This document shows positions 1,483 through 56,469 of a DNA stretch of 64,000 nucleotides, piece after piece. The number at the start of each line of letters is the position of its first letter. Within the stretch, counting starts at the first letter, position 1. The translations under genes were made by a program, and so were the position numbers. Under the pieces are notes generated by a model. The model saw only the letters and a program-made list of their open reading frames with translations, did not search any database and had not been told where the DNA came from. Location of the stretch: contig JBDKRA010000029.1 in the NCBI GenBank assembly GCA_039683615.1, forward strand, positions 53,256 to 117,255, written 5' to 3'. This DNA is from Phycisphaerae bacterium. Lineage in GTDB: Bacteria; Planctomycetota; Phycisphaerae; SM23-33.

Positions 1483-2121
1483 GTGAAACGATTCCCAAAC
1501 CCGATGGTTCCCGTCTCCGTGCGATGGCGCCGGCGGCGCATCATGCGTCTCAGTGCCGCGTCGTTGATAGCCTTGGCGATTGCGGCCGCGCTGGCGGTTG
1601 CGGACCGCAGTGGATTCTTCGGCCGCGCGCCTGAGGGCGAGTTTGCCCGCTACGACGGCAAAAACTTCCGCGTGACAAAGGTCGTAGACGGCGACACGAT
1701 CGACATCGACATGCCGGATCTGAAAACTTCGCACCCGCACACGCGAATCCGGTTCTGGGGCGTGGACACGCCGGAAGTTCCCCACGGTGAAAAGCCCGGA
1801 ACCTACTTTGGTCCCGAGGCCGCCGCTTATACTCGCAAGCTCATCCAGGGGCAGTACGTGCGGCTGGAACTCGAGCCGGCCAAGAAGCCCCGCGACAAGT
1901 ACGACCGCCTGCTGGCGTGGATCTATCTGAGCGACGGGCGGCTGCTCAACCGCCTGCTGGTCGAGGAAGGCTGCGCCTACGCCGACCCGCGATTCGATCA
2001 TCATCTTAAAGGCGAGTTCGCGCGGCTGCAGAAGAAGGCCCGCACGGCCGGGCGGGGGCTTTGGAAGTCCGTCAAGCCCGAAGACCTGCCCTACTATATG
2101 CAGCAAGACAGCAATCGGTAG
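1483..2121 (+). CDS. Thermonuclease (SNase/micrococcal nuclease) family protein, membrane-anchored or secreted
   Basis: VDGDTIDI...RIRFWGVDTPE...GEKPG...DKYDRLLAWIY is the staphylococcal-nuclease fold signature. N-terminal hydrophobic segment LIALAIAAALAV. The true start may be the internal M at 1543. Confidence 0.8.
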   Translation: MKRFPNPMVPVSVRWRRRRIMRLSAASLIALAIAAALAVADRSGFFGRAPEGEFARYDGKNFRVTKVVDGDTIDIDMPDLKTSHPHTRIRFWGVDTPEVPHGEKPGTYFGPEAAAYTRKLIQGQYVRLELEPAKKPRDKYDRLLAWIYLSDGRLLNRLLVEEGCAYADPRFDHHLKGEFARLQKKARTAGRGLWKSVKPEDLPYYMQQDSNR

Positions 2122-2226
2122 CCCAAAGAGGTAGCCAGTAGCCCGTAGCCGGTAGCCAGTGGGGAAGGACGCCGATTGGCAACGCATGGTTTTCCCTGGC
2201 TACGGGCTATCGGATACCGGCTACTT
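2113..2226. repeat. Long imperfect palindromic GTAGCC-rich repeat element, copy 1
   Basis: AATCGGTAGCCC...GTAGCCAGTGG ... CCCTGGCTACGGGC arms. Related copy at 19798-19905. Its left end overlaps the last codons and stop of the nuclease gene. Confidence 0.6.
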
Positions 2227-2300
2227 CTTTGCGAGGCTTTTTGGGCTTGTTATCGGCGCGTGTTTGTGCAAAATAACCGCTCAGGAAAAGGAGTTCAGCC

Positions 2301-2933
2301 GTGGCTTTGATTTTTGGCGACAACGACCGTGTTTTGTTCCAGGGCGACAGCATCACCGACTGGGGGCGCAGCCGCACCGACGACAATAATCTCGGCGGCG
2401 GATACGCGGCCGCGTGCGCGGCGTGGATCTCGGCGGCCTATCCGGCCAAGAAGATCACGTTCCTCAACCGCGGGATCAGCGGTAATCGCGCGTGCGACCT
2501 CAAGGCCCGCTGGCAGGCGGACTGCATCGACCTCAAGCCCAACTGGGTTTCGATCCTGATCGGCATCAACGATACGTGGCGGGCGTTTGACAGCAACAGC
2601 CCCACCACGGCAGAGGCGTACGAGGTCGACTACCGCGCGATCCTGACCGACGCGCGTGCCAAGCTGAATGCCAAGTTCATCCTGTGCGAACCGTTCGTGC
2701 TTCCCTGCCCTCCCGACCGTGAGAAATGGCGGCTCGATCTCGATGCCAAGATCAATGCCGCCAGAAAGCTCGCCCGCGAGTTTGGCGCGATCTTCGTGCC
2801 CTTTGACGGCATCTTCGCTGCTGCGGCAACGCAGCGCGAACCAGCCTTCTGGGCCGGCGACGGTGTACACCCAAGCCCGGCTGGCAACGCCCTGATGACC
2901 CAGGCATGGCTGCGGGCGGTGGGAGCTCTGTAG
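2301..2933 (+). CDS. SGNH/GDSL-family hydrolase (lipase/acylhydrolase)
   Basis: N-terminal FGDSITD block (GDS(L) motif) and C-terminal DGVHP (catalytic D-x-x-H). GTG start preceded by the RBS aggaaaaggag. Confidence 0.85.
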   Translation: MALIFGDNDRVLFQGDSITDWGRSRTDDNNLGGGYAAACAAWISAAYPAKKITFLNRGISGNRACDLKARWQADCIDLKPNWVSILIGINDTWRAFDSNSPTTAEAYEVDYRAILTDARAKLNAKFILCEPFVLPCPPDREKWRLDLDAKINAARKLAREFGAIFVPFDGIFAAAATQREPAFWAGDGVHPSPAGNALMTQAWLRAVGAL

Positions 2934-2978: not shown

Positions 2979-4310
<1,332 letters not shown>

Positions 4311-4347: not shown

Positions 4348-4881
4348 ATGGTCGGCTTTCTCGTGCTGACCGTGCCGGCGATGACAGTGTTCGGCTCGGC
4401 CGTACTGCTGCCGCATATCGTCAATCAACAGCACAATCAGTACCTGCTGGAGAGCAAGCAGGCCCAGGTGGCCGATTGGGAAGTGCTCGTCGCCGCCAAC
4501 GACAAGCTCATCGCGCACCTGCCCGTCGACGAGGTGCTGACCAAGCGGCTGGCCGAAAACCAGTTAGCGGTCATACCCGACGGCGAGGAAGTGATGCCGC
4601 CCGTGGGGGCGGCCAACCCGCCGGATCTGCTGCATCCCCAGCCCCACAAGCGCCCCAGCCCCCCGCCGGCGTGGCTGCTGCGCCTCAGTCGGCGATTGAG
4701 CAATCCCCCCACCCGCCGCGGCCTGGTGGTCCTGTCGCTGGGAACGATCATCACCGCGTACTTCCTGTTCTCGCCGCCGTCGGCCGCGCGGCGCAGGAAG
4801 GAAGATGGGCAATCTCCTGAAGGCTCCGCGCCGCTTGAAGAAGCTCAGGAAGAGAATCCCCAACCGGCGACAACGCCGTGA
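4348..4881 (+). CDS. Hypothetical membrane protein (Pro-rich C-terminus)
   Basis: ORF directly downstream of eno. Hydrophobic N-terminal segment FLVLTVPAMTVFGSAVLL. No recognisable family. Start chosen downstream of the eno stop. Confidence 0.35.
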   Translation: MVGFLVLTVPAMTVFGSAVLLPHIVNQQHNQYLLESKQAQVADWEVLVAANDKLIAHLPVDEVLTKRLAENQLAVIPDGEEVMPPVGAANPPDLLHPQPHKRPSPPPAWLLRLSRRLSNPPTRRGLVVLSLGTIITAYFLFSPPSAARRRKEDGQSPEGSAPLEEAQEENPQPATTP

Positions 4882-4890
4882 TTCCGTTTT

Positions 4891-4917
4891 GAGTTGTGAA
4901 CTCACCACACACAACTC
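4891..4917. terminator. Hairpin GAGTTGTG-N11-CACAACTC between convergent genes
   Basis: 8-bp stem between the + gene ending at 4881 and the sigma factor gene ending at 4936. Shares the GTTGTGAG/CACAACTC word with the hairpin at 50141-50198. Confidence 0.4.
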
Positions 4918-4935
4918 ACCACTCACCACTGCTTA

Positions 4936-6609
4936 TTACGCCATCAAGTCCGACTGCTCGGGCTGCATCAAGCCTCGCAGTTTCTTCATGGCCTGAAGTT
5001 CGATCTGGCGGACGCGCTCTTTGGAGATGCCCAACTGGCGGCCGAGCTCTTCGAGAGTCTTGCTCTTGCCCGAGGGGTCGAGGCCGTAATGGTCGATGAG
5101 GATGGCCCGCTCCTGCGGGTTGAGCCGGGTCAGAACCGCGTCGATGCTCTCGCGAAGCTCTCGCAGATTCAGTTCGTTGGGATCGTACGTGCGAAGACTG
5201 GCGGCGATATCGAGCACTTCCTCGTTGCCGGTGGCGAAGCGGTCAAGCTGGTACAACTCCTTGGGCACGCTGCGGGCGAAGTTGCGGATGATGGCCCAGG
5301 AGGCATACGTGCTGAAACGGTTGCCTCGCGTGTAGTCGAACTTCTCCACCGCTCGCATGAGCGAGACGTTGCCGTCACTGATAAGCTCGAAAAGCGTCTG
5401 GGCCTTGCCCACGTGTTTCTTGGCGATGGACACCACCAGGCGCAGGTTCGCGCGGATGATCTGGTTCTTGACGACGTTGGACTGCAACAGGAGGTCTTCG
5501 ATTTCCCGCAGCTTACGCGTGCGGACGCGATTGAGGTCGATCCCCTTGCGCTGCTTGTCGGCCTTGTACTTGAGGTAGTTGTACCGGCGGAAGAGATCCT
5601 TCTCGCCCTCGCTGGTCAGCAGGGGCACGTCGTAGAGAGCCCGCAGGTACGGGGGCAGATCGGACGGCGGCCGCGGGGCAGGCTTGGATGAGTCCCCGTC
5701 CAACGGCACTGCCGCCATGATGATTTCATCGGCGTTGGGCAGGTCGAACTGCGAGCTGTACACGTAATTGACTGACCGCTTGAGCAGTTGCTGCGCCCGC
5801 ACTTCGTTAACAACGCGATAGATCGTGCCTCGCGTGCGGTGGTGGCGCTGGGCCAGGGCGGGCACGGCCAGGCCCCGCAGATATCCGCGGTAGATGGCGA
5901 TCTTCTCCTGGTCGTTCAGCGGGGCGAAGAGATAGGGAAAGATGGGATCTTCGGGATGTTCGATGTCGTGGTTTCGCAGCGTGTAGCGGATGGTCTCCAT
6001 GGCCCGGCCGCTGCGTGCCGCCAGCCGCTTGGCCACGTCGCTGAGCGAGCAGTGCGTGAACAAGGCCATTCGCTTGGCACGGCGGAAGATGTCGCGGCGT
6101 TCCTGCTCGCTGAGCTGGGTGAATCGCACCGAGCGGCTGACCTCGCCTTCCTGGCGGCTGATGAACCGCTGCAGGGAGCTTTCGAGGAACGCAATTCGTT
6201 TGCGTCCGTCGGGGAAGATCATCCGCCGCGTGGGCAGCCCGCGAAGGCGCCATCGCTGGACGGTCTTGGTCGAGACGTTGTACCGATTGGCGACAGCCTG
6301 GGTATCGACGGCGGGTTCTTCGTATTCGCCGGTGCGCAGGTCGAAGCTGTCGCAGATCTTGATCATCATTTCCAGCAGATCGCGGCGGAGCCTGGACCCG
6401 AGCATGGGCCTCGGCGTGGACTTGTCGATGCTTCGCGGGCGATAGCCCGTCAGGCGGAAGACCACGAAGTCGTAGGGATACTCTTGGTCGTCGTCGAGGA
6501 TCATCGCCAGCGATTCGGCGGAATCGACGTACCCTTTCCGCAGGCGCGCAAGCCCCGCGGCCAGTTCCGCCGCCATTTCCTCCATCGCCTTGTACGCGTA
6601 TTTGCCCAC
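4936..6609 (-). CDS. RNA polymerase sigma-70 family factor with long N-terminal extension
   Basis: C-terminal half carries regions 2-4 (IRANLRLVVSIAKK, DLISDGNVSLMRAVEKFD, RFSTYASWAIIRNF, LEELGRQLGISKERVRQIELQAMKKLR). The ~280-aa N-terminal extension has extra HTH-like segments. GTG start with a GGAGAGGG RBS. Confidence 0.85.
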   Translation of the reverse strand: MGKYAYKAMEEMAAELAAGLARLRKGYVDSAESLAMILDDDQEYPYDFVVFRLTGYRPRSIDKSTPRPMLGSRLRRDLLEMMIKICDSFDLRTGEYEEPAVDTQAVANRYNVSTKTVQRWRLRGLPTRRMIFPDGRKRIAFLESSLQRFISRQEGEVSRSVRFTQLSEQERRDIFRRAKRMALFTHCSLSDVAKRLAARSGRAMETIRYTLRNHDIEHPEDPIFPYLFAPLNDQEKIAIYRGYLRGLAVPALAQRHHRTRGTIYRVVNEVRAQQLLKRSVNYVYSSQFDLPNADEIIMAAVPLDGDSSKPAPRPPSDLPPYLRALYDVPLLTSEGEKDLFRRYNYLKYKADKQRKGIDLNRVRTRKLREIEDLLLQSNVVKNQIIRANLRLVVSIAKKHVGKAQTLFELISDGNVSLMRAVEKFDYTRGNRFSTYASWAIIRNFARSVPKELYQLDRFATGNEEVLDIAASLRTYDPNELNLRELRESIDAVLTRLNPQERAILIDHYGLDPSGKSKTLEELGRQLGISKERVRQIELQAMKKLRGLMQPEQSDLMA

Positions 6610-6644: not shown

Positions 6645-8408
6645 TTACGGTTGAGGCGCCGCCGGCGGGGGCGTCTGCGGCGGGGTGACCGCGGGCGCCT
6701 CGGGTGAGGCCGGAGGGGCGGCAGGCTCGGACGCCGCCGGCTGCGTCGCGGCAATGCCCGCCAGCCGGTCGCGCAGGTGCAATACCGGGCGCAAATACGG
6801 CGAGGCCTCACGGCTCTTCATCGCGTCGGCGATGATCTCGTTGGCTTTGCGCAGTTTCTCGGCGTCGTTCTTGAGACGATAGTGCCCCAGGTATGCCGCC
6901 GCCAACTCGCCCTGGTAGATCCAGCGATAGACCTTTTCATTCTCTTTGAGGCCTTGAATGGCCAGTTCGTAATCGCGGATCGTCTCTTCGTAGTTCTTCA
7001 ACGATTCGCCAGCCGTCACGTCGGGATTGCTCAGGTACGCCGCCAGTTCCTGGGCCTCTTTGGGCGCTGTGGCATTGGCAGCGGCCTTGGGCCAGACGTC
7101 GTTGATCGGGGCCTGCAACGCCAGCAGCCGGCGGGCGAAGATAGCCTGTTCGCTCTGGAGACCGGCGATGCGTGCGAGCACGTCGCCCTTTTCGGCCAGT
7201 CCCTCAGCGGTATTGGCGTCGGGGCCGACTAGCGCGTGGCCCAGTTCCGCCTGGCAGTTGCTGTATTCTTTCATCGCCTGGGCCTCATCGGCCTTGGCGC
7301 CCAGGGCCGCCGCGTTGACGGCGGCTACATCTTTGAGGATGGCGTCCTGCGACTCCTTGATGAGCTTGAGGCAGTCTTCTCGCTGCTGGCCGCGGCGGCC
7401 CATCTGTTCTTTGCGGTGTTCGAGCATGCTCTTGGCCATTTCGATCTTGCTGCGGCCGGCGTTGATTCGCACGCCGAGCATGCGGCGCTGTTCGAGCAGT
7501 TGCTGCACCTGGTTCTGGTTGGTGGAGATCTTGCCCTCGATCTGCCGGATCTGGGCTTCGTCTTTGAGCACGTCCTCGATCATGGCCAGGCTCTTGGCCC
7601 CGGTGATCAGACGGCTTTCGGCGCGATTCTGCCGCGCTTTCTGGGACAGGGTTGCGATCTGGTCGCGCAGCGCCGCCACCTCGTTGCCCAGGTAGATGAT
7701 CTGCTTCGAGGCCGCCTCGTGCTCTTTCTCGATGTCAGCCAATTCGGTCGTGGTCTGGTCGACGATCTTCTGCACGTCGTCATCGGGCAGGCTCAGCAGT
7801 TTGTCGTACTGGGCGAGGAACCCCAGTTGCGCCTGCACGACGCCCAGGGTGCGATCGACGCGGTTGGCATCGCGCTGCGCGTTCCAACGCTGGTTGAGCG
7901 CTTTCTGGTCGAAGCAGTAACCGCGCAGCGACATCACGCGAGCGGCCATGTGATGCGCCAAGGCCTTGATGTCCGCAGGGGCCAGGCTGTTATCGGCCAG
8001 GGCCGCTTGCAGGATCGTCTTGGCCTGCGTCAGCGCCGTCTCGGCTTGGGGGTTGACGGCGTTGGGCGCCCTGAGCCTGATGGTCTCACGGGTCACAACG
8101 GGGTCGCCGTCCTTGACAAAGGGTCCGACCCTTCCCGAGACGGAGTCTTCGTGGACAGGGGTGGACAACAGCCCCAGCGCACGCTGATAGAGGGCGTCGG
8201 CGTCGTCGACGGCCGCCACGATGCCGGCGCGGGCCTTATTGACCCCTTCCTCGTTGCGCGTCACGAAGTAGGTGAACCACACCGCCAGCACCACCAGGGC
8301 GATGATGCCGCCCACGGTCAGCAGGACGCTCTGACGGTCCGGAAACAGTTTGCCCGCCGGAGAGGCAGAGCCCGTACGGCGCCCGGATTCCTTGCGGGAT
8401 TCGGTCAT
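6645..8408 (-). CDS. Hypothetical single-pass membrane protein with long coiled-coil periplasmic region and Pro-rich tail
   Basis: Short basic N-terminus, TM segment VLLTVGGIIALVVLAVWFTYFV, heptad-rich Q/E/A/L region, C-terminal PAASEPAAPPASPEAPAVTPPQTPPPAAP. Ends 35 nt upstream of the sigma gene. Confidence 0.6.
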   Translation of the reverse strand: MTESRKESGRRTGSASPAGKLFPDRQSVLLTVGGIIALVVLAVWFTYFVTRNEEGVNKARAGIVAAVDDADALYQRALGLLSTPVHEDSVSGRVGPFVKDGDPVVTRETIRLRAPNAVNPQAETALTQAKTILQAALADNSLAPADIKALAHHMAARVMSLRGYCFDQKALNQRWNAQRDANRVDRTLGVVQAQLGFLAQYDKLLSLPDDDVQKIVDQTTTELADIEKEHEAASKQIIYLGNEVAALRDQIATLSQKARQNRAESRLITGAKSLAMIEDVLKDEAQIRQIEGKISTNQNQVQQLLEQRRMLGVRINAGRSKIEMAKSMLEHRKEQMGRRGQQREDCLKLIKESQDAILKDVAAVNAAALGAKADEAQAMKEYSNCQAELGHALVGPDANTAEGLAEKGDVLARIAGLQSEQAIFARRLLALQAPINDVWPKAAANATAPKEAQELAAYLSNPDVTAGESLKNYEETIRDYELAIQGLKENEKVYRWIYQGELAAAYLGHYRLKNDAEKLRKANEIIADAMKSREASPYLRPVLHLRDRLAGIAATQPAASEPAAPPASPEAPAVTPPQTPPPAAPQP

Positions 8409-17176: not shown

Positions 17177-18325
17177 TTACTCTTGGCCGGAAATAAACTT
17201 ATATTTGCCGCCATTTTCCTTGGCGATGGTCTGCAGCACTTCGACAGCCACGGGCGGCTTGTTGCCGTAGAGGAACGTGTTGACGTGCACGTCCCGGCGG
17301 ATGTTCAGCGCCCGGATGGTCGCCAAGGCCTTCTCGTTGTCTGGGAAGACGCCGTCGGTCAACAGAAACAACAACTTGCCTTCCAGCTTCGGATTGGCCG
17401 CGGCCAGCACCGCAAAGGCCCGCTTCAGCGCTGGGATCGGGTCGGTCTGGGCCTGGGCCTGCACTTCCTTGAGGAACTTGACGGCCTCGAGCTTGGACGC
17501 TTCGGTCGCCGAGACGAGTTTCTTGGAGGGCGGTTCCAGCGGCGCGCCTTCGGCGAAAAGGATGATGTGGAAGTCCTGGCTGGACTGGAGACGCCCCATC
17601 GATGCGGCGCACTCTCGCTTGACCAGGTCAAAGCTGTCGCTCATGGAGCCCGAGCGGTCGATGACGTACACGATATGGTGGGCATTGCCGCCGCTGCCGA
17701 ACAGCCCCGCGCCGGGCGCCCCGGCGCCGCCGGCCAGGCCCGCCACCGGGCTGCCGCTACCGGCGCTGCCGCCCTGGGCGTACACGGCAATCTGCTTGTT
17801 GGTGCGGCTGGCGTCGGTGATCAGGGCCGACTCTTTCTTGGAGTAGTTCGGCGAGGCGGCCTTGGGACGGTTGCTCATGGCCTTGGCGGTCTGCTCGCGA
17901 GTGCTGAAGCTGCCGCCGGGGTTTTCGCTCAGCGTGGCCGAGGGGACCAGCACCTTCTTGGGATCGATGGGCGGATTGATCACCATCACCACCAGGAAGA
18001 ACATGATCAGCGCCAGCGCCGCGTGCAGGAACAGGCTGACGACCCAGGGCATCGAGCGGGCCATGACGATCATCATGGCTTCATCGCGATGGCTGCCCTC
18101 TTCTTCCAGAGGCTCTTGGTCTTCCGGGGCCGGCGGAGGCGTCTGAGAAGACGTCGCCACGACGCCGCGTTCGGCGTTGGGCGGCACGTGCGGGCGAGGC
18201 AGAGCGGCCAGTCCCGCCGGAACCACCGTCATCTTTTGACAATGGGGACAGCGGGCCGACTTGCCGATCTCGCCTTCAAGCCGCACCATCTGTCCGCAAT
18301 GTTCGCACCGGAAGTCCGCAGCCAT
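17177..18325 (-). CDS. Zinc-ribbon / single-TM / Pro-rich linker / von Willebrand factor A domain protein
   Basis: N-terminal CxxC...CxxC (CEHCG...CPHCQ), TM helix VVSLFLHAALALIMFFLVVMV, then a VWA domain (VYVIDRSGSMSDSFD... LLFLLTDGVFPDNE). Confidence 0.8.
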   Translation of the reverse strand: MAADFRCEHCGQMVRLEGEIGKSARCPHCQKMTVVPAGLAALPRPHVPPNAERGVVATSSQTPPPAPEDQEPLEEEGSHRDEAMMIVMARSMPWVVSLFLHAALALIMFFLVVMVINPPIDPKKVLVPSATLSENPGGSFSTREQTAKAMSNRPKAASPNYSKKESALITDASRTNKQIAVYAQGGSAGSGSPVAGLAGGAGAPGAGLFGSGGNAHHIVYVIDRSGSMSDSFDLVKRECAASMGRLQSSQDFHIILFAEGAPLEPPSKKLVSATEASKLEAVKFLKEVQAQAQTDPIPALKRAFAVLAAANPKLEGKLLFLLTDGVFPDNEKALATIRALNIRRDVHVNTFLYGNKPPVAVEVLQTIAKENGGKYKFISGQE

Positions 18326-18393: not shown

Positions 18394-19491
18394 TCATTCC
18401 GCTTTCACGTTAAAGAAGCCACCATGGTTTTCGGCCGCTATCGTCTTGAGCGTGCTTTCGGCCACGCCCGAGCGGCCGCCGTAGAGGTAAGTGTTGACCT
18501 GCACGAACCGCTGGGGATTCAACGCCCGCACGAGACCCAGGGCCTTGGCACTATCGGGAAACTCCCCGTCGGTGAGCAGGTGCACCAACTGCCGTCGCGT
18601 GGGACCGCGGGAGGCCTTGAGAACCGCAAAGGCCCGCTTCAGCGCCGGCTGCGGGTCGGTCTGGCCCGTGGGCTTAACCTGGAACAGGAACCGCGCCAAG
18701 GCCAGGCGGACCTCATCCGTCGGGGCCGCCAGGTTCGGGCGAAACTCGATAGGCACGCCGCTGTCAAACAACACCACCGCGAAGCGCTGACGGGGGCTCA
18801 GACGCGCGACCTCGCGATTGATCTGGTCGCAGAGATAGCTGAACGTGTCGGACATCGACCCGCTGCGGTCGATCACAAAAACGGTGTCGTCCGGAGGCAA
18901 CCCGTCAGGCACGCGAGGGCCGCCGCCGGGTTTGTCTGCCGTGCCTATGCGGAATATCGCGCCGTCGCCCGGTGTGGGCCGCCCGCTCTGGATCAGCCCC
19001 GGGGCAAGAATGCGGACATCGGGTTTGAGCTTGTCCGGCCGGCCCGGATCCACAAGCTCAGGCTTCTTCCAGACCCGGTCGGAGGGGGCGTCAAGCCGGG
19101 TCGATTCACGACCCGTGTCGGTCAGCTTCACCAGGTCACGGAAACGTATCGACGGTGCACTGTTGTAACCACTCTGCACCTGCGCCGGCGGCTCGGGCTT
19201 CTGCGTCACCATGACGACCACCAGCATCAGGACCAGGCCCAGCGACAGGTGCAGCAGTCCGCTCACCAGCCACGGGAACATCCGCGCAAGCAATCCGTCA
19301 GCCGCGGCGCAGCGCTGCAACTCGCGCTGCTCCTGCTCTTGCGGCGGGGCATCGGGAATCACAGTCACGGGCATGGCCGCGATGGCCTGGGGAACGTAAA
19401 CGTCGCGCCCGCATGCGCACCGCCCGCGCCGGGACCTCGAACCGATCAGCATCTTCCGCCCGCACCGGTCACACTGAACTGGAATCTTCAT
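18394..19491 (-). CDS. Zinc-ribbon / single-TM / VWA domain protein (paralog)
   Basis: CDRCG...CACG zinc ribbon, TM helix WLVSGLLHLSLGLVLMLVVVMV, VWA domain (VFVIDRSGSMSDTF... LVHLLTDGEFPDS). Start set at MKIP. Confidence 0.8.
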   Translation of the reverse strand: MKIPVQCDRCGRKMLIGSRSRRGRCACGRDVYVPQAIAAMPVTVIPDAPPQEQEQRELQRCAAADGLLARMFPWLVSGLLHLSLGLVLMLVVVMVTQKPEPPAQVQSGYNSAPSIRFRDLVKLTDTGRESTRLDAPSDRVWKKPELVDPGRPDKLKPDVRILAPGLIQSGRPTPGDGAIFRIGTADKPGGGPRVPDGLPPDDTVFVIDRSGSMSDTFSYLCDQINREVARLSPRQRFAVVLFDSGVPIEFRPNLAAPTDEVRLALARFLFQVKPTGQTDPQPALKRAFAVLKASRGPTRRQLVHLLTDGEFPDSAKALGLVRALNPQRFVQVNTYLYGGRSGVAESTLKTIAAENHGGFFNVKAE

Positions 19492-19708
19492 GGCAGTACT
19501 CCCCAACAGCAGGTTCTCTCCGATCCTCAAGGCCGGGCCACTGCCGCTTGCGGGTTGGCAGGTTCTCTGCTTGCCGAACAACTGCCAGGCCGCAAGCGGC
19601 AGAGGGAACAGCCGGATTCTTCAGGCATGTCGGCCCCGGGCATTTTTCGCTATGGCCCGGCGGCCGCGTGTTCGTATGATTAGACGCAGTAGTTGCAGAA
19701 AAGTTCCC

Positions 19709-19790
19709 GCGAGGGTGGCGGAATTGGCAGACGCGCCAGGTTTAGGTCCTGGTCCCGAAAGGGATGTGGGTTCGAGTCCCTCCCCTCGCA
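19709..19790 (+). tRNA. tRNA-Leu (TAG)
   Basis: Acceptor GCGAGGG/CCCTCGC, long variable arm, anticodon loop TTTAGGT, T-loop GGTTCGAGTCC. 82 nt. Confidence 0.85.
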
Positions 19791-19797
19791 ATGGCAG

Positions 19798-19905
19798 TAA
19801 TCGGTAGCCCGTAGCCAGTGGCGGGCAGAAACAAGACTCTGTCGAGAAGGTCTTTCCTGGCTACTGGCGACTGGCTACCGGCTCACTAGCTACGGTTCCT
19901 ACCGG
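19798..19905. repeat. Long imperfect palindromic GTAGCC-rich repeat element, copy 2
   Basis: AATCGGTAGCCCGTAGCCAGTGG ... CCTGGCTACTGGC...GGCTACCGG. Related to 2113-2226. Its right arm encodes the last ~15 codons of the GT2 gene (…VASEPVASRQ). Confidence 0.6.
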
Positions 19906-21387
19906 TTCACGGCGGGCCTGGAAGCTCAGCACCGACACGTAGAAAAACCCGAAGGCGAAGATGACCAGGAACGGGCTGCCCAGCAGGCCCCACACGCTGG
20001 CCATCGACAGCAGGGCGCACGCGCCGAGGTAGATGCCAAACCCCATCTCGACGTATGGCAGCCAATGGTTCTTGCGCTTGGGTCGAACGCCGCCCGTCGT
20101 AACGCCCCCGCCGTTGGCGGAGCTGCAGCCGTACTTGGGGGTGCGAACAAACTCGCTGCGCTTGCCCAGCACCGCTTCAAAAATAGCCTTGGTGTTGGAG
20201 ATGCACATTCCCACGCCCAGGGCCATCAGCATCGGCATGAACTTGAACGCCGTGCGCCAGTCGCGGAAAAGCTGGAACTGGCTGGCGGCGTAGAACACCG
20301 TCGCCGACAGCGTCGCCAGCGTGAACACCGTCATGTCAAACAGCGTGAGCCAGACGTTGACTTCGCCATGGGCCGACGCCCGCACGCACGCGGCCGGAAA
20401 CAACAGCAACACCAGCAGGGCCATGTAGAAATGCAGCGTGAAACCCGTCAGGTGGAAGAACCCCTCGATCTTGACCTTCAGCGGGGCCTTGGACAGCAGC
20501 AATCGCGGGAGCATTTTCAACGCCGTCTGCGCGCCGCCCTTGGTCCAGCGGAACTGCTGGGCCTTGAAGGCGTCCATCTCCGGCGGCAGTTCGGCCGGAC
20601 TGGCCAGCTCGGGCAGGAAGACGAACTTCCAGCCCTTGAGCTGAGCACGGTAGGACAGGTCGAGGTCTTCGGTCAGCGTGTCGTTGCGCCAGCCGCCGGC
20701 GTCTTCGATGGCCTTGCGCCGCCACGTGCCGGCCGTGCCGTTGAAGCTCATGAACCGGTCGCTGCGGTTGCGAGCGACGTGCTCGATCATGAAATGCCCG
20801 TCGAGGAACATCGCCTGGCTGCGGGTGAGCAGGCTGTCGTTGCGGTTGAGATGCTCCCAGCGCGTCTGCACGACGCAGACTTTCGGGTCGGTGAAGTAAT
20901 GCACGCTGCGCTGGAGGATGTCCGGCGGGGGAATGAAATCGGCGTCGAAGATCGTGACGAACTCGCCGGTAGCGCTCTTGAGCCCGTTCTCCAGCGCGCC
21001 GGCCTTGTAGCCCTGGCGGTTGGTGCGATGAACGAAGCTGACATCGAACCCGCGGGCGCGGCAGCTTTCGACCGTCCGACGGCAGATCTCGGTCGTCTCG
21101 TCGGTGCTGTCGTCGAGGACCTGGATTTCCATGCGGTCGCGCGGGTAGTCGATCAGGCACGTCTGCTCGATGATCCGCTGGGCGACCAGACTCTCGTTGA
21201 ACATCGGCAACTGCACCGTCACGCGCGGCAGCGGGTCGAACGTCGACGGCGGCGTGGGCACGTTCTTGCGATGGCGGAAGTACAGAATCACCAGCACCCA
21301 GCGGTGCAGGCCGTACATCGAGACCACCACCAACGCCAGGGTGTAGACGGTAACGAGAAACGATTGTCCCAGTTCCAGCAAGTTCAT
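19861..21387 (-). CDS. Family 2 processive glycosyltransferase (cellulose/hyaluronan/glucomannan-synthase-like), multi-TM
   Basis: DxD-type motifs (LDDSTDET, FDADF), TED, and the QQFRWTKG (QxxRW) processivity motif. N- and C-terminal TM helices. Confidence 0.85.
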   Translation of the reverse strand: MNLLELGQSFLVTVYTLALVVVSMYGLHRWVLVILYFRHRKNVPTPPSTFDPLPRVTVQLPMFNESLVAQRIIEQTCLIDYPRDRMEIQVLDDSTDETTEICRRTVESCRARGFDVSFVHRTNRQGYKAGALENGLKSATGEFVTIFDADFIPPPDILQRSVHYFTDPKVCVVQTRWEHLNRNDSLLTRSQAMFLDGHFMIEHVARNRSDRFMSFNGTAGTWRRKAIEDAGGWRNDTLTEDLDLSYRAQLKGWKFVFLPELASPAELPPEMDAFKAQQFRWTKGGAQTALKMLPRLLLSKAPLKVKIEGFFHLTGFTLHFYMALLVLLLFPAACVRASAHGEVNVWLTLFDMTVFTLATLSATVFYAASQFQLFRDWRTAFKFMPMLMALGVGMCISNTKAIFEAVLGKRSEFVRTPKYGCSSANGGGVTTGGVRPKRKNHWLPYVEMGFGIYLGACALLSMASVWGLLGSPFLVIFAFGFFYVSVLSFQARREPVGTVASEPVASRQ

Positions 21388-21488
21388 GTGAGGCCTCAAG
21401 GGCACCGTGCCCCGCTGCATCGGCGGATAATACTAGTCACACCCGCCCCCGCCGTCAATAGGTTGGTCGTAATTGCCCTGTGGGCGTT

Positions 21489-27850: not shown

Positions 27851-28008
27851 CCACAGAGGCACAGAGGGCGCAGAGGTAAGAAACAAAACAAGAACCGGGT
27901 GGCATGGCGACATGCGTTGCTGTTCCTTGCGGGTCACCATGCCACCCGTCGCTCGCATCCATCCTGTTGTTGCTTTTTCATTCACTCGTTCTTCTCTGTG
28001 CCTCTGTG
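27851..28008. repeat. Nested palindromic element in the fliR-flhB intergenic region
   Basis: Outer 16-bp inverted repeat CCACAGAGGCACAGAG / CTCTGTGCCTCTGTGG. Inner inverted repeat CGGGTGGCATGGCGAC / GTCACCATGCCACCCG. Shares the GAAACAAAA..GTCGCCATGCCACCCG word with 30331-30362. Confidence 0.6.
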
Positions 28009-30330: not shown

Positions 30331-30407
30331 GAAACAAAAACGCGTGTCGCCATGCCACCCGACTGGGAGTTCAGGGACACGCACAACGGAGTTGTGCGTG
30401 GCACCCG
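30331..30407. repeat. Two adjacent repeat elements inside the flagellar operon (fliN-fliO spacer)
   Basis: 30331-30362 GAAACAAAAACGCGTGTCGCCATGCCACCCG is related to 27879-27948 and 35645-35672. 30372-30407 is near-identical to 1428-1464. Confidence 0.6.
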
Positions 30408-35474: not shown

Positions 35475-35611
35475 AAAGGTCTCAAGTGCTGCGCTCACGG
35501 TCGACCGGCTACTACTCTTTACGCTTTGCAAAATGTATAGCACCTGCGGCAAAGCAGCAACGGAAAAATCTTTAGAAAATCTGAAAAAAGTTACCGCCAC
35601 GACGATATGGG

Positions 35612-35657
35612 CGTCCTCAGCGACCTCAGCGGCTAACTAATCCCCCGGAAACAAAAA
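35612..35657. repeat. Partial copy of the 43370-43547 inverted-repeat element
   Basis: 25 nt (CGTCCTCAGCGACCTCAGCGGCTAA) identical to 43493-43517, then a similar tail (CTAATCCCCCGGAAACAAAAACG vs TTTAACCCCCAGAAATTGGTCGCAAAAACG). Confidence 0.6.
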
Positions 35658-41566: not shown

Positions 41567-41601
41567 CCACAGAGACACGGAGGGGGATGAGGTAAAAACA
41601 G

Positions 41602-41714
41602 AGACTTTGCCACAAAGAGCACAAAGACCACGAAGAAGAAGACGAAGAGATTTGGTCCCCGTCACTCTCTGTGTTCTTTGTGACCTTTGTGGCAAAGCTT
41701 CTTCTTTCTTTTTG
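41602..41714. repeat. Long imperfect inverted repeat (CTTTGCCACAAAG...CACAAAG family) between the GRE gene and the next gene
   Basis: Left arm CTTTGCCACAAAGAGCACAAAGACCACGAAGAAGAAG and right arm CTCTGTGTTCTTTGTGACCTTTGTGGCAAAGCTTCTTC are reverse complements with a few mismatches. Confidence 0.5.
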
Positions 41715-41724
41715 CGAGAGCAAA

Positions 41725-43367
41725 CGATGAACATGCGAAATGGTCTGGTGGCATTGTCGGTGATCGTTCTTCTGGCCGCTTGCGGCTTCGCGGATGTGCC
41801 CAAGGTCCCCCCGCCGGTCGGGGCGCCGCTGGCGGCGAAGTGGGAGTATAGTCGCGACGGCGGCAAGACGTTCTCCCCTGAGGCGCCGGCGGTGACGGTC
41901 ACCAGCGGACCCGACGCCAAGAACGCCCTCGTCGCGCGGGCGACGTTCAGCATCGACGACATGGCGAAGATCGGCGCCGTAAAGATCGTGACGGCGTCTG
42001 GCACCGGGGCCTTCGCCCTGACCGACGCCGACAGCGTCCAGCGGCGGTACGTCGGGGCGTACCCCACGCTCGTCAACGCCAGGCTGGCCGTCAACGGCAA
42101 GGAGACCGACGCCGGGCATTTCCCCTCGCGTCTATACAACTATCTCACCATCGACCCGGACCTGCTGCACAAGGGCGCCAATACGCTGACAGTCGCCGCC
42201 GTGCTGTGGGCGCCGCCGACTGTTAAGACCGACGCTCCGGCCGGGCTGAGCCTGGAGACGCTCGGGACGGACATGGTCTCGCTCGACCGCGGGCCGACGC
42301 TGGGGGCCATCGGCGAGGACTACTTCACCTTCACCGCCCGCGCCGTCACGGCCTGCGATTTCAGCGTGAGCGTCAAGCCCATCGAGCCGGCCGGCGCGGA
42401 GACGCAGCAGGCCTTGCCCAAGGCGCGGCTGCTGCGGGCGAAGGTAGCGCTTGCCAAAGGAACGAAGAAGTTCGCCTACACGCTGACGGCCAAGTCGGCC
42501 GGCGGGGCGACCAAGGCGTACGGGCCTTACGAAGTGGTCGTGCCGGTCTTCGGCGAGGGGTTCAAGTTCGTCGCCGCGGCCAACACCTACATCTACGGGC
42601 ACCATCCCGAGGAGCTCAAGGCGTTCTTCGCCAAGCTGCCCTCGTCGGGCGGGCAGATCTTCGTGCATGGGGGCGTGATGCAGAACGTGGCCACCCACGA
42701 CCAGATGTGGACGAACGACTTCTTCTACTACAGCCGCGAGGCCCTGGCCCGCATGCCGATGTACGCTGTGCCGGGCTACCCCGACACGTACTCGATGGAA
42801 GCCTGGGGCAGCGAGTTCTACTTCCCCACCCCCGACGGGACATGGAATTACTGGACGCAGGCTTTCGGCAAGGTGCGGCTGATCGGGATCGAGGCGATGT
42901 CGATGATGGAGGACAAAGGCGCGGGCAAGGCCTGGCTCGAGGACGTGCTCAAGAACGCCAAGGAAGATTACGTCATCGTCTTCAACTCGCAGGCGCCAAA
43001 CTGCTCGGGCCAGAACGCCAAGTACTACTCAAAGCCGGCGGTGGAGTACATCGCCAAGGAGATCAGCCCGCTGCTGGTGAAGTACAAGGTGACGGCCACC
43101 ATCGGCAGCTACCACTACAGCTACCAGCGCAACGAGCCGCCGGCCGACGAGAGCGTCACGACGATCATGACCAGCAAGGCCGGCGGGCTGGGCTGGCCGC
43201 TGCGCACGGATTTCGTGGCCGCCAACAAAGAATCGAAAGTCGCCGTCGGATACAAGAACCACTACTGCCTCTTCGAAGTGACCAAAGACGCCCTGCAGAT
43301 GCAGGCGATAGCGTACGAGACCGGAGAGGTCATCGACAAGGTGACGTTCAAACCGCGGGCCAAGTAA
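41725..43367 (+). CDS. Hypothetical secreted lipoprotein
   Basis: Signal/lipobox LVALSVIVLLAACGF. ~545 aa. No confident family. Start placed at MNMRNG. Confidence 0.6.
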
Positions 43368-43369
43368 TT

Positions 43370-43547
43370 AGCCGCTGAGGTCGCTGAGGACGCTGAGGGG
43401 GAGGGATGGAATAGTGGAATAACGGAATAATGGACTTGGTCCTTTGACCGGTATTCCACCATTCCATCATTCCCTTGTTCGTTCTTCCTCAGCGTCCTCA
43501 GCGACCTCAGCGGCTAATTTAACCCCCAGAAATTGGTCGCAAAAACG
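43370..43547. repeat. MITE-like element with perfect 31-bp terminal inverted repeats
   Basis: TTAGCCGCTGAGGTCGCTGAGGACGCTGAGG (43370-43400) is the exact reverse complement of 43487-43517. The interior is also palindromic (GGAATAGTGGAATAACGGAATAATGG / CCACCATTCCATCATTCC). Partial second copy at 35612-35657. Overlaps the stop codon of the upstream gene. Confidence 0.6.
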
Positions 43548-50124: not shown

Positions 50125-50140
50125 ACACGGATGAAAGAAA

Positions 50141-50198
50141 GTTGTGAGTTGTGAGTTGTGAGTTGTGGATTCTTTCTCACCACGCACAACTCACAACT
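50141..50198. terminator. Strong bidirectional terminator hairpin (GTTGTGAGTTGTG repeats) between convergent genes
   Basis: (GTTGTGA)x3-GTTGTGG / CCACGCACAACTCACAACT stem of ~20 bp with an 11-nt loop. The right arm overlaps the stop codon of the M81 peptidase gene. Confidence 0.55.
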
Positions 50199-55600: not shown

Positions 55601-56414
55601 CTGGCGATTCGTGCGGCCATACAAGCACTGCGGCCCATTCAACGCCTCAGCCGACACGCTGTTCTTCCGCTGCGAGGGCTACGGCTACTACGACACCACG
55701 CGAGACACCGGCGTGAGCCTCTTCCCCAGCAACCGCCCCAACTGCTGGATGAGCTTCATCGCGGCCGAGGGCCTGGCGCTGTGGCCGGCCGGCGACACCG
55801 GCTGCCGCTGCGGCCTGCCGATCTCGTGCAGCGTGGCGCTGGTGCATGACGACGAAGACCGCGTCTACGGCGACTACTCGTTCTCGGGCGACCTGACGCC
55901 CGTGCGGACGCTGGCGCTGAACATCGCCGGCCCCGGCGATCGCCGCGACAGCAGCGGGCAGCTCTGGCTGGCATTCCCGCGCAACAAGTACGGCGGCGCG
56001 GTCGAACTGCCTTACACTGCCGCCTTCGATGGCAAGGAAACCTACGACCGCCGCAACTCCATCTGGAACGGCGTGAAGGACGGTGCCGCACCGTGGGTCT
56101 ACGCCTCGGCCGCCGTGGGCATCAAGCAGCTCAAGATCCCGCTGCGCAAGGCCGCCGACGGCCCGGGCAAGTACACCGTGAGGCTGCACTTTGCCGCCTG
56201 GCCCGGCGACACGGCCGGCAAGCGAGTCTTCGACATCAAGCTCCAGGACAAGCCCGTCAAGGAAGGCGTCGACCCGGCCGCCGCCGGCCCCGACCATCCG
56301 CTGGTGCTGACCTTCGAGAACATTGAAGTCAAAGAAGACCTGACCATCGACCTGATCGGCAAGACCGCCGACAAACCGCTCCTGTGCGGCCTGGAGGTCA
56401 AGCTGGCACAGTAG
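52620..56414 (+). CDS. Large secreted PQQ-like beta-propeller repeat protein with embedded class-I methyltransferase-like domain
   Basis: Signal peptide LALLALFLMTAPALA. Many PQQ/BamB-type blades (VYCLEAGTGKVKWTY, VYCLSAADGKEVWKF, IYAVDAKSGKLIWKN…). Central segment FALVYGVETGELALEIARKTDLFVVAVSDD…GGRVIVEQ resembles a SAM-MTase fold. Confidence 0.75.
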   Translation: MRRYRLALLALFLMTAPALAADWPTFRKDISRSGITDESLSLPLTQAWVFVSPFKPAPAFGPGYALHTNFEGGVEKRRIDFDRSDSTVAVGDSVFMGSVGDGKVYCLEAGTGKVKWTYLTGGPVRLAPTVDAGNVYVGSDDGWVYCLSAADGKEVWKFRAAPEDRRVIGLGKMVSLWPVRSSVMVDSGIAYFTAGIFPSEGVFIYAVDAKSGKLIWKNDSTGEQRLLQVCPQGYLLANKNQLVIPNSRLCPFVYDRATGKGPLMRLSIYFGGGSFAALDGVWLYTGWEGARAFRINTTNLKSEGGNTECAGSFPGGQLVAGQGMVYSVGLPHGEGASKAVKAYAFTPPPADGPAVDEKEARRGKGTPAAAPADNGKEVWSAPMEGAESIILAGKTVFVGAPGKVAALDAATGKETWTAKVEGSALSLTVANGRLLASTDTGKIYCFASGVAAGGEVRPIADANIKISQRMQAAADAAMKMAPDIRKGFALVYGVETGELALEIARKTDLFVVAVSDDAAKVAAARKLIESAGLYGGRVIVEQWPLDRVPYTKYFAALVVSETAELTSKCPGTWAELYRMTQPVRGTIVLPEGAREGQNAAKAPAGWQKIVRDPLKDARPWTHQYAVPGNTASSMDKEVRGPFRVQWFGNPGPADFVDRHYWGASPLALDGRMFVCSYSAVTAYDAYTGTELWNYPLKNATRAHIADVPGNVAVGPEGYFIAVDDTCRRLDPVTGKLLGEYKVPGAAEGKGHMWGYVALVDGVLVGSRTIGKLDMNKWKSSRGEQVGWWLSSDLLFAMDAKTGQVLWQHQSPWFSHNSITAGTAADTGAKAMVYMLDPNVPDNQVAAALAESKPFMDKFPGGGKRVDKKGKAIEAAVSLLMAFDLREGLKWQKPVDCSATGGGRVTLVLTKGLLLQMSDQGGWKAFGGYSVNEGTGRGMAARKAANGELVWLKDLSYRSRAVIAGDTIFAEPWAYDLATGEKKTIPNPLTGQTVPWRFVRPYKHCGPFNASADTLFFRCEGYGYYDTTRDTGVSLFPSNRPNCWMSFIAAEGLALWPAGDTGCRCGLPISCSVALVHDDEDRVYGDYSFSGDLTPVRTLALNIAGPGDRRDSSGQLWLAFPRNKYGGAVELPYTAAFDGKETYDRRNSIWNGVKDGAAPWVYASAAVGIKQLKIPLRKAADGPGKYTVRLHFAAWPGDTAGKRVFDIKLQDKPVKEGVDPAAAGPDHPLVLTFENIEVKEDLTIDLIGKTADKPLLCGLEVKLAQ

Positions 56415-56469
56415 CAGTAGCATCCCCTGGGGATGAATAGCACCGGCCTGCCGCCATGCTCTTGCGGTC

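Follow-up and report, generated by a model that had tools for sequence, protein, structure and literature searches.

Tandem repeats of a seven-nucleotide unit have been described in several groups of bacteria. As summarized in two later papers (PMC4679880, PMC4692102), the survey of Mrazek et al. (2007) found heptamers to be the most over-represented of the long simple sequence repeats (SSRs; units of 5–11 nt) in many bacteria, and polymerase slippage was proposed as their source. In Xanthomonas, arrays of the unit GGGAATC lie on average 28 nt from the upstream open reading frame (ORF) and 160 nt from the next one, 7–11% of them overlap ORFs, and 70–75 pairs are inverted ("convergent") with the potential to form a stem-loop, for which no function was found (Rehm et al., 2015; PMC4692102). 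The cyanobacterial STRR (short tandemly repeated repetitive) heptamers (CCCCAGT, TTGGTCA, CAACAGT) and the TAACTGA repeats of Beggiatoaceae, Cyanobacteria and Bacteroidetes differ between strains by indels in 7-nt steps and have a scattered phylogenetic distribution (MacGregor, 2015; PMC4679880). Here we describe two elements of this kind in a 64,000-nt stretch (the window) of a Phycisphaerae bacterium (Planctomycetota; GCA_039683615.1, contig JBDKRA010000029.1, positions 53,256–117,255 of the forward strand), one at the 3′-end of a thermonuclease gene (copy 1) and the other between a tRNA-Leu gene and a family-2 glycosyltransferase (GT2) gene (copy 2). The elements are of a kind already known in other bacteria and still unexplained, they are probably not a mobile element, and their unit, GTAGCCN, is new. 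Judged by their sequence, they would be classed as heptanucleotide SSRs in the convergent inverted arrangement, with a new unit, in a metagenome-assembled genome (MAG) of the Planctomycetota. They most likely originated by growth in place through replication slippage, and their role is most likely that of a putative terminator or 3′-end hairpin. To this reading as a whole, that is, slippage-grown inverted heptamer SSRs at gene 3′-ends whose hairpin acts as a terminator or 3′-end structure, we would give a probability of roughly 0.6.

The two elements share many properties with the GGGAATC repeats of Xanthomonas, which are likewise tandem 7-nt units, usually in about four copies, intergenic and nearer to the end of the upstream ORF; some of those repeats overlap ORF ends, many convergent array pairs can form a stem-loop, and their lengths and sequences vary between close species. 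The difference lies in the host phylum, Planctomycetota, and in the unit, since GTAGCCN has no run of three or more G and hence no G-quadruplex potential, and it carries a stop codon in the sense of the upstream gene, by which all three frames are closed. Period 7 dominates here as it does among the long SSRs of Mrazek et al. (2007), while inverted-pair hairpins and stop-codon polarity are not described in the summaries of that survey in PMC4679880 and PMC4692102. As with the STRR and TAACTGA repeats, the heptamers are tandem and intergenic and many have a CAGT/ACTG core, represented here by CAGTAGC, CAGTGGT and CAGTTGT (PMC4679880). The TAACTGA repeats of Beggiatoaceae, however, are mostly found directly before start codons, and only 1 of 170 is inverted (PMC4679880), whereas the arrays considered here are found at gene 3′-ends and form hairpins. 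The fixed polarity, the position close to stop codons and the closing of all three frames are what is added here to the knowledge of heptamer repeats.

The features of the two loci are the following (TRF, Tandem Repeats Finder):

1483..2121, plus strand: thermonuclease (SNase) gene (ORF list; Pfam SNase, E 1.3e-18; homologues)
2110..2165, plus strand: left arm of copy 1, AGCAATC GGTAGCC CAAAGAG GTAGCCA GTAGCCC GTAGCCG GTAGCCA GTGGGGA (sequence, TRF)
2166..2195, unstranded: loop and inner stem of copy 1 (alignment, fold)
2196..2238, plus strand: right arm of copy 1, CTGGCTA CGGGCTA TCGGATA CCGGCTA C, plus the outer stem TTCTTTG..GGC (inverted repeat, fold)
2238..2242, plus strand: TTTTT run at the 3′ base of the hairpin of copy 1 (sequence, fold)
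2301..2933, plus strand: GDSL-like lipase/acylhydrolase gene, downstream of the nuclease gene and co-directional with it (ORF; Pfam, E 1.3e-27)
19709..19790, plus strand: tRNA-Leu (anticodon tag), convergent with the GT2 gene (ARAGORN; Rfam tRNA)
19796..19823, plus strand: left arm of copy 2, AGTAATC GGTAGCC CGTAGCC AGTGGCG (sequence, inverted repeat)
19824..19856, unstranded: loop of copy 2 (fold)
19857..19905, minus strand: right arm of copy 2, CCGGTAG GAACCGTAG CTAGTGAG CCGGTAG CCAGTCG CCAGTAG CC (TRF, translation)
19861..21420, minus strand: GT2 gene (Pfam; homologue tails)

Copy 1 (2110–2238 in all) and copy 2 (19796–19905) are both GTAGCCN heptamer arrays facing their own reverse complement; either strand has (GTAGCCN)n as its 5′ arm and the complementary (NGGCTAC)n as its 3′ arm. 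According to TRF both contain at least three head-to-tail 7-nt units, as a heptanucleotide SSR does, and they are convergent in the sense that arrays of the same unit lie close together on opposite strands. The tandem structure of copy 1 at 2131–2160 has period 7 with the unit GTAGCCA in 4.3 copies and 86% matches, and that of copy 2 at 19857–19893 has period 7 in 5.1 copies. The inverted repeats were located at 2124–2159/2196–2231 (83% complementary) and 19802–19822/19860–19880 (86%); in copy 1 the outer stem TTCTTTG..GGC pairs with 2120–2130, position 2120 being paired to 2238. On either strand both copies fold into a long imperfect hairpin, with a dG of −66.6 kcal/mol and z of −5.9 for copy 1 (none of 200 shuffles equal) and −53.7 kcal/mol and −3.1 for copy 2 (1 of 200). 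Arm complementarity amounts to 70–90% with the mismatches at variable unit positions, a pattern compatible with independent slippage and with an old inverted duplication alike. At the Rfam gathering threshold only the two tRNAs of the window passed, and a permissive search of Rfam returned only miRNA-precursor models at 22–24 bits against cut-offs of 79–128, that is, sub-threshold generic hairpin noise.

The hexamers GTAGCC and GGCTAC occur 16 and 17 times in the window, compared with approximately 22 expected per strand, and are therefore not enriched overall. They are clustered at the two elements, with seven in 102 nt at 2118–2219 and four in 70 nt at 19804–19873, where the overall hexamer frequency predicts about 0.07 per 100 nt; no further cluster of three or more was found anywhere in the window. 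Aligned to each other, the copies match mainly in the arms, where the number of units differs, and these two GTAGCC copies in the 64 kb examined are otherwise non-alignable: their loops have no conserved core and only the purine-rich inner stem GGAARRAC...GTYTTYCC can be aligned. The window has exactly two occurrences of the string AATCGGTAGCCC, at 2113 and 19799, and this string can be read as [AGYAATC][GGTAGCC], a degenerate first unit followed by a full unit in register with the array. An earlier note on this DNA had placed two copies of a dispersed palindromic repeat family at 2113 and 19798. The sites, the ORF ends and the long imperfect hairpins proved to be as it described them, apart from a shift of one nucleotide in the second coordinate. 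The note overlooked that the arms are tandem 7-nt repeats, and the dispersed family was not supported, as the copies have in common only the 7-nt unit and the short purine-rich inner stem, with neither a conserved core nor target-site duplications. A scan of metagenome contigs for AATCGGTAGCCC...GTAGCC, built on the terminus that the note suggested, gave more than 120 matches, nearly all of them chance matches in coding DNA. In the few real arrays, which read GGTAATC GGTAGCC CGTAGTC..., GGTAATC is a degenerate unit, and the string is thus part of the array and not the terminus of an element.

Each GTAGCCN unit brings a TAG, and as its length of 7 nt is not divisible by 3, every reading frame has a TAG once three units follow one another. 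An array therefore closes any ORF that enters it, and this is why both the nuclease and the GT2 genes end inside arrays. The nuclease ORF ends ...AGC AAT CGG TAG, with the stop at 2119–2121 in the first two heptamer units. Copy 1 thus overlaps this stop and lies at least 59 nt from the next start. In the GT2 protein the conserved core ends ...FGFFYVSVLSFQARR, and the last approximately 14 residues and the stop come from the right arm of copy 2, whose degenerate heptamers are translated as PVGTVASEPVASRQ* to give the C-terminal peptide ...EPVGTVASEPVASRQ. Two units of this tail are irregular, 9 and 8 nt long, and because they shift the phase no TAG is in frame until the ORF has crossed about six units. 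Both repeat-written gene ends had been recognized in the earlier note, as had the start of copy 2 just past the tRNA (the tRNA ends at 19790 and AATCGG follows 8 nt on).

To what extent the repeats altered the proteins was judged from homologues. The conserved core of 119 GT2 homologues ends ...FGFFYVSVLSFQA(E/Q)RA and is followed by a non-conserved tail of 15–25 residues. The VASEPVASRQ end, which would be ancestral if distant relatives had it, was found in none of the 119. Four relatives of 68–74% identity keep the order HIT – GT2 – tRNA-Leu(tag) – VWA as far as their contigs reach, with GT2-to-tRNA spacers of 32, ~135, 63, and 340 nt; none of the four has a GTAGCC array at the GT2 locus and their GT2 tails are unrelated. 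Because relatives without the array have unrelated tails and no homologue shares its end, the GT2 tail in the window is lineage-specific and repeat-encoded, and it would take the place of a protein region that varies freely in every relative. In one of these syntenic relatives (L244) an ordinary hairpin at 3050–3100, GGCAGGGGCGAA...TTCGCCTCTGCC followed by the T-rich tail TTTTCCT, occupies the gap between the GT2 and tRNA-Leu genes, the very spot where the window has the heptamer hairpin.

The nuclease gene gave a different picture. Its tail past ...DLPYY is variable in all homologues, and the closest orthologue (83% identity, Logan contig L121:1000–1031) is equally long, with its stop at the same codon position. 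It ends AAT AGT AGC CAG TAA (AGTAGCCAGTAAG), which is a related but different heptamer context. The array at this gene is thus older than the split from the 83% orthologue, and remodelling was minimal, only the last few codons being affected. The contig itself ends 4 nt past the stop, within AGTAGCCAGTAAGAAG, which suggests that short-read assemblies break at heptamer arrays. Of the claim that repeat insertion had remodelled both C-termini, the repeat-encoded GT2 tail holds; insertion of a dispersed family does not, and the nuclease was barely altered. When the C-termini were compared with those of orthologues, as recommended in the note, GT2 had a differing end and the nuclease a stop at the same codon position.

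The pattern GTAGCCNGTAGCCAGTGG, which matches both copies, was scanned against a species-representative genome collection and matched at least 116 stretches. Among the matches listed, to which the following counts refer (118 sites in 116 loci), Acidobacteriota had the largest share, and Chloroflexota, Planctomycetota, Bacteroidota, Actinomycetota, Gemmatimonadota, Desulfobacterota, Verrucomicrobiota, Poribacteria, and others were represented according to the record titles. The periodicity of 7 extended to at least 3.6 units at 96 of the 118 sites, the longest array having about 48 units, and neighboring units form mutational series such as CAGTAGC, CAGTGGC, CAGTGGT, CAGTTGT. Period 7 was by far the commonest TRF period in the 116 loci (422 of ~1150 arrays), although these loci had been preselected for one such array. 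All sites were oriented with GTAGCC on the plus strand before counting. At about 27 sites the upstream sense ORF ends 4, 11, or 18 nt inside the array, a spacing that reflects the three-frame stop property in practice, and at many others it ends within +20 nt. For clusters of period-7 arrays, the median distance was 14.5 nt to the 3′-end of a gene and 77 nt to the start of one. An inverted heptamer partner was detected downstream at 30 of the 118 sites and upstream at none, while a comparable inverted repeat was present in 8 of 116 random segments from the same loci. Of the arrays situated 0–30 nt beyond a called stop, 34 have their stop-bearing strand in the sense of the gene and 12 in antisense (binomial p = 0.0016).

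Tandem-repeat-armed hairpins with other units occur elsewhere in the window. The strongest local inverted repeats of the 64 kb are 43366–43519, 41595–41707, copy 1, 19538–19605, 50140–50198, copy 2, and 4890–4932, and those that have not been listed above and have tandem-repeat arms are:

4890..4932, unstranded: small hairpin GAGTTGTG ... (ACTCACC)n (TRF 4900–4930, period 7; sequence)
41595..41707, unstranded: hairpin of CACAAAGAN-type units with 42-nt arms, 79% complementary (TRF, inverted repeat)
43366..43519, unstranded: nested hairpin of ~155 nt (TRF, inverted repeat)
50140..50198, unstranded: (AGTTGTG)4, an 8-nt loop and (CACAACT)3 at a convergent junction (TRF; inverted repeat, 91%; sequence)

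The right arm of 50140–50198 holds the stop (50191–50193) of a minus-strand M81 peptidase gene (Pfam), and 4890–4932 sits between the stop at 4879–4881 (plus strand) and that of a sigma-70 gene at 4936–4938 (minus strand; Pfam). The units of these two hairpins, AGTTGTG and GGTGAGT, provide TGA in all three frames as GTAGCCN does TAG. The nested hairpin at 43366–43519 has outer arms of GCTGAGGNN (period 9, 33 nt, 100% complementary) and inner arms of GGAATAAN (period 8); it starts on the stop (TAA) of the gene upstream, and TAA, TAG, and TGA occur within 14 nt, each in a different frame. Its right arm recurs alone at 35611–35651 (41 nt, 90% identical), in an intergenic region between divergent genes. 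In 41595–41707, which is flanked by co-directional genes, the purine-rich arm comes first, then a T-rich run follows, and an ATG lies about 20 nt further at 41728. According to the GC-frame gene map the window has five convergent junctions, of which four have a tandem-repeat-armed hairpin (4881|4936, 19790|19861, 43367|43548, and 50124|50191). On each strand the purine-rich, stop-bearing arm of these hairpins leads, and the flanking stop codons lie in the arms or at most ~15 nt away.

Considering these data, we propose that replication slippage would create the arrays and alter their length in place, without transposition, and that in the lineage of the window they may have overwritten the dispensable, non-conserved C-terminal tail of GT2. 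The transcribed hairpin past the stop codon would then be a putative terminator or a protective 3′-end structure, which at convergent junctions could work in both directions. Growth of an SSR in place is favored over a transposed element because arrays of the same unit are present in more than 100 genomes of many phyla. The terminator or 3′-end role is suggested by the position of the hairpins just past stops, the T-run of copy 1, the occupation of four of the five convergent junctions and the ordinary terminator of L244. Copy 1 is terminator-like in its anatomy, its stem running into TTTTT with seven T in the 12 nt past the stem. The likeness to intrinsic terminators consists of the hairpin right past the stop, this T-run, and the ordinary terminator hairpin that a syntenic relative has at the spot of copy 2. 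The stems described here, however, are 25–45 bp long with regular mismatches, compared with the usual 5–14 bp, and the U-tract is missing at copy 2 and most hairpins of the class. A simple terminator scan is blind to hairpins with a loop above 8 nt and is thus uninformative for these elements.

Several observations weigh against slippage-grown hairpins with a terminator or 3′-end role. The only second assembly (L117) is identical, and no 7-nt length difference of the sort that slippage produces was seen in it. Random slippage does not explain, either, why distant phyla have the same unit. As to the terminator role, copy 2 has a T-run on neither strand, and five or more T followed only 2 of 32 hairpins of the class, in a test where minimum free energy folding blurred the stem boundaries. 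Solo arrays, which have no partner and are unable to form a hairpin, make up 88 of the 118 sites; with GTAGCC arrays being mostly solo, a hairpin function cannot explain the whole class. The genes at the 116 loci were called heuristically by GC-frame scoring, and when the orientation count was limited to arrays without GTAGCC units it gave 10 versus 4, in the same direction and not significant. Finally, a seeding bias, namely duplication starting from a stop-containing segment, could mimic part of the polarity and placement.

A wider generalization would be that GTAGCCN arrays and related ones with the CAGT core form a multi-phylum class of polar modules combining a three-frame stop with a hairpin, in which on both strands the stop-bearing arm always faces the incoming gene. 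We put this forward tentatively and with considerable doubt. If true, translation would be halted in any frame just before the structure that ends or protects the transcript, and the same unit in distant phyla would point to a sequence-specific mechanism that generates or selects it, and not to random slippage.

Among the other explanations, a neutral mutational by-product is a serious alternative, though clearly the less probable one. Slippage arrays would merely persist where they are tolerated, the space after a stop codon being the most permissive, their inverted partners would arise via template switching, and the hairpin and the stops would be incidental. The prevalence of solo arrays, the free variation of units and lengths, the imperfect complementarity of the arms with mismatches at variable unit positions, the lack of conservation of the element at the GT2 locus in relatives and the absence of any function found in published work (PMC4692102) agree with this view. 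Neutral growth does not readily account for the fixed polarity (30 partners downstream and none upstream, 34 sense and 12 antisense arrays), for the way arrays hug stops despite the larger intergenic space (medians of 14.5 and 77 nt) or for the four occupied convergent junctions out of five in the window. Polarity and tight stop placement together suggest more than neutral drift.

The REP, BIME (bacterial interspersed mosaic element) and REPIN sequences of Proteobacteria, that is, the repetitive extragenic palindromes (REPs) and their composites, are discrete palindromes of 20–40 nt present in many copies, linked to the RAYT transposase and presumed to be terminators or mRNA stabilizers, and REP sequences classically carry a 5′ GTAG. 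The elements described here are similarly extragenic, hairpin-forming and GTAG-containing, often at convergent junctions or 3′-ends. A mobile element resembling a REPIN or a miniature inverted-repeat transposable element (MITE), moved for instance by a RAYT-type tyrosine transposase recognizing hairpins with GTAG and inserted at both loci with truncation or extension of the genes, could explain the two ~110-nt hairpins with their GTAG motifs and common left-edge 12-mer, the absence from the GT2 locus of four relatives, and a hairpin that matches at 76% identity along 100 nt, some of its loop included, at a non-orthologous locus of another Phycisphaerae MAG (L109). We nevertheless regard such an element as unlikely. 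The common 12-mer is an in-register heptamer sequence, the loops have no conserved core and cannot be aligned between the copies, and the number of units per arm varies. Neither target-site duplications nor other flanking direct repeats were seen at either hairpin when the flanks were checked by eye, which together with the loops speaks against a MITE. Unlike REP or REPIN units, the arms contain GTAG in tandem direct 7-mers of variable number, and no single arm is self-complementary. No transposase was seen beside either copy among the ORFs and the Pfam matches of the neighboring genes. Transposition also does not give rise to the solo tandem arrays, with 3 to ~48 units, that occur across many phyla. 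The L109 site (L109_b), which of all foreign elements is the most similar, was considered as an orthologue of the copy 1 locus and rejected, since by its ORF translations it is flanked by ATP-grasp-like and HAD-like genes; it is therefore no guide to conservation beside the nuclease gene.

It is very improbable that the arrays serve as periodic binding sites for a protein that binds RNA or DNA, or as a trans-acting antisense module pairing between loci: (GUAGCCN)n offers UAG every 7 nt, as in the UAG triplets spaced 4 nt apart (i.e., period 7) that HutP binds, and the same unit occurs at separate loci and in many phyla, but no candidate protein was identified, related arrays use UAG-free units (CAGTGGT, CAGTTGT, AGTTGTG), the motifs are base-paired in the hairpin form, and the matches in Rfam were only sub-threshold generic hairpins. 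Chi-like or primase-site arrays, CsrA-type GGA sponges, integrase attachment sites at the tRNA, and a connection of the repeat with the TAG anticodon of tRNA-Leu were dropped for want of support.

For annotation it follows that the last codons and the stop of a gene can be written by a fast-evolving simple repeat, and C-terminal tails like that of GT2 should be regarded as repeat artefacts and not be taken for conserved protein features. Assemblies would also tend to break at the sites of heptamer arrays. The overall interest of the elements is modest, and genome-wide attention would best go to their polarity and to the three-frame stop property. A literature search for the heptamer strings themselves returned nothing relevant.

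Two sets of arrays in other genomes deserve mention. A Candidatus Poribacteria MAG (L111) carries two very long arrays within 8 kb (3802–4050 and 7290–7622) of alternating GTAGCCA/GTGGTCA with ~48 units or more, showing how far heptamer arrays expand. Of three matches in IMG/VR viral contigs, two were genuine solo heptamer arrays (L245:4361–4378 and L246:13737–13754), one reading GTAGCCA GTAGCCA GTGGTCA GTAGTCA... and the other GTAGCCA twice, GTGGCCA, GTAGCCA and then GGGGTCA units; predicted (pro)phage DNA thus carries heptamer arrays as well.

Other repeats were noticed around the two loci. A 37-nt repeat, TCAGGGACRCGCACAACGGAGTTGTGCGTGGCACCCG, which holds a small hairpin and belongs to a family distinct from the GTAGCCN arrays, is present twice in the window at 97% identity (1428–1464 and 30371–30407), its first copy just upstream of the nuclease gene. 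A CGGGTGGCATGGCGAC...hairpin motif lies at 27896–27948, and its inverted second occurrence adjoins the second 37-mer (27896–27941/30316–30361). Upstream of tRNA-Leu, a 33-nt inverted repeat at 19538–19605 (79% complementary, 2-nt loop), the arms of which are not tandem repeats, overlaps the start region of a VWA-domain gene. Two adjacent paralogous genes at 17177–18325 and 18394–19581 encode VWA-domain proteins with Cys-rich N-termini and have a 72-nt stretch in common (76% identity, 17406–17477/18620–18691); this gene pair beside tRNA-Leu is kept in relatives. Elsewhere in the window, a large gene ending at 56414 stops in CAG TAG CAG TAG CAT, with CAGTAG repeated and two in-frame TAGs, and a small hairpin, CATCCCC/GGGGATG, directly follows this stop (site 56405–56440), giving a similar stop-bearing repeat at a gene end.

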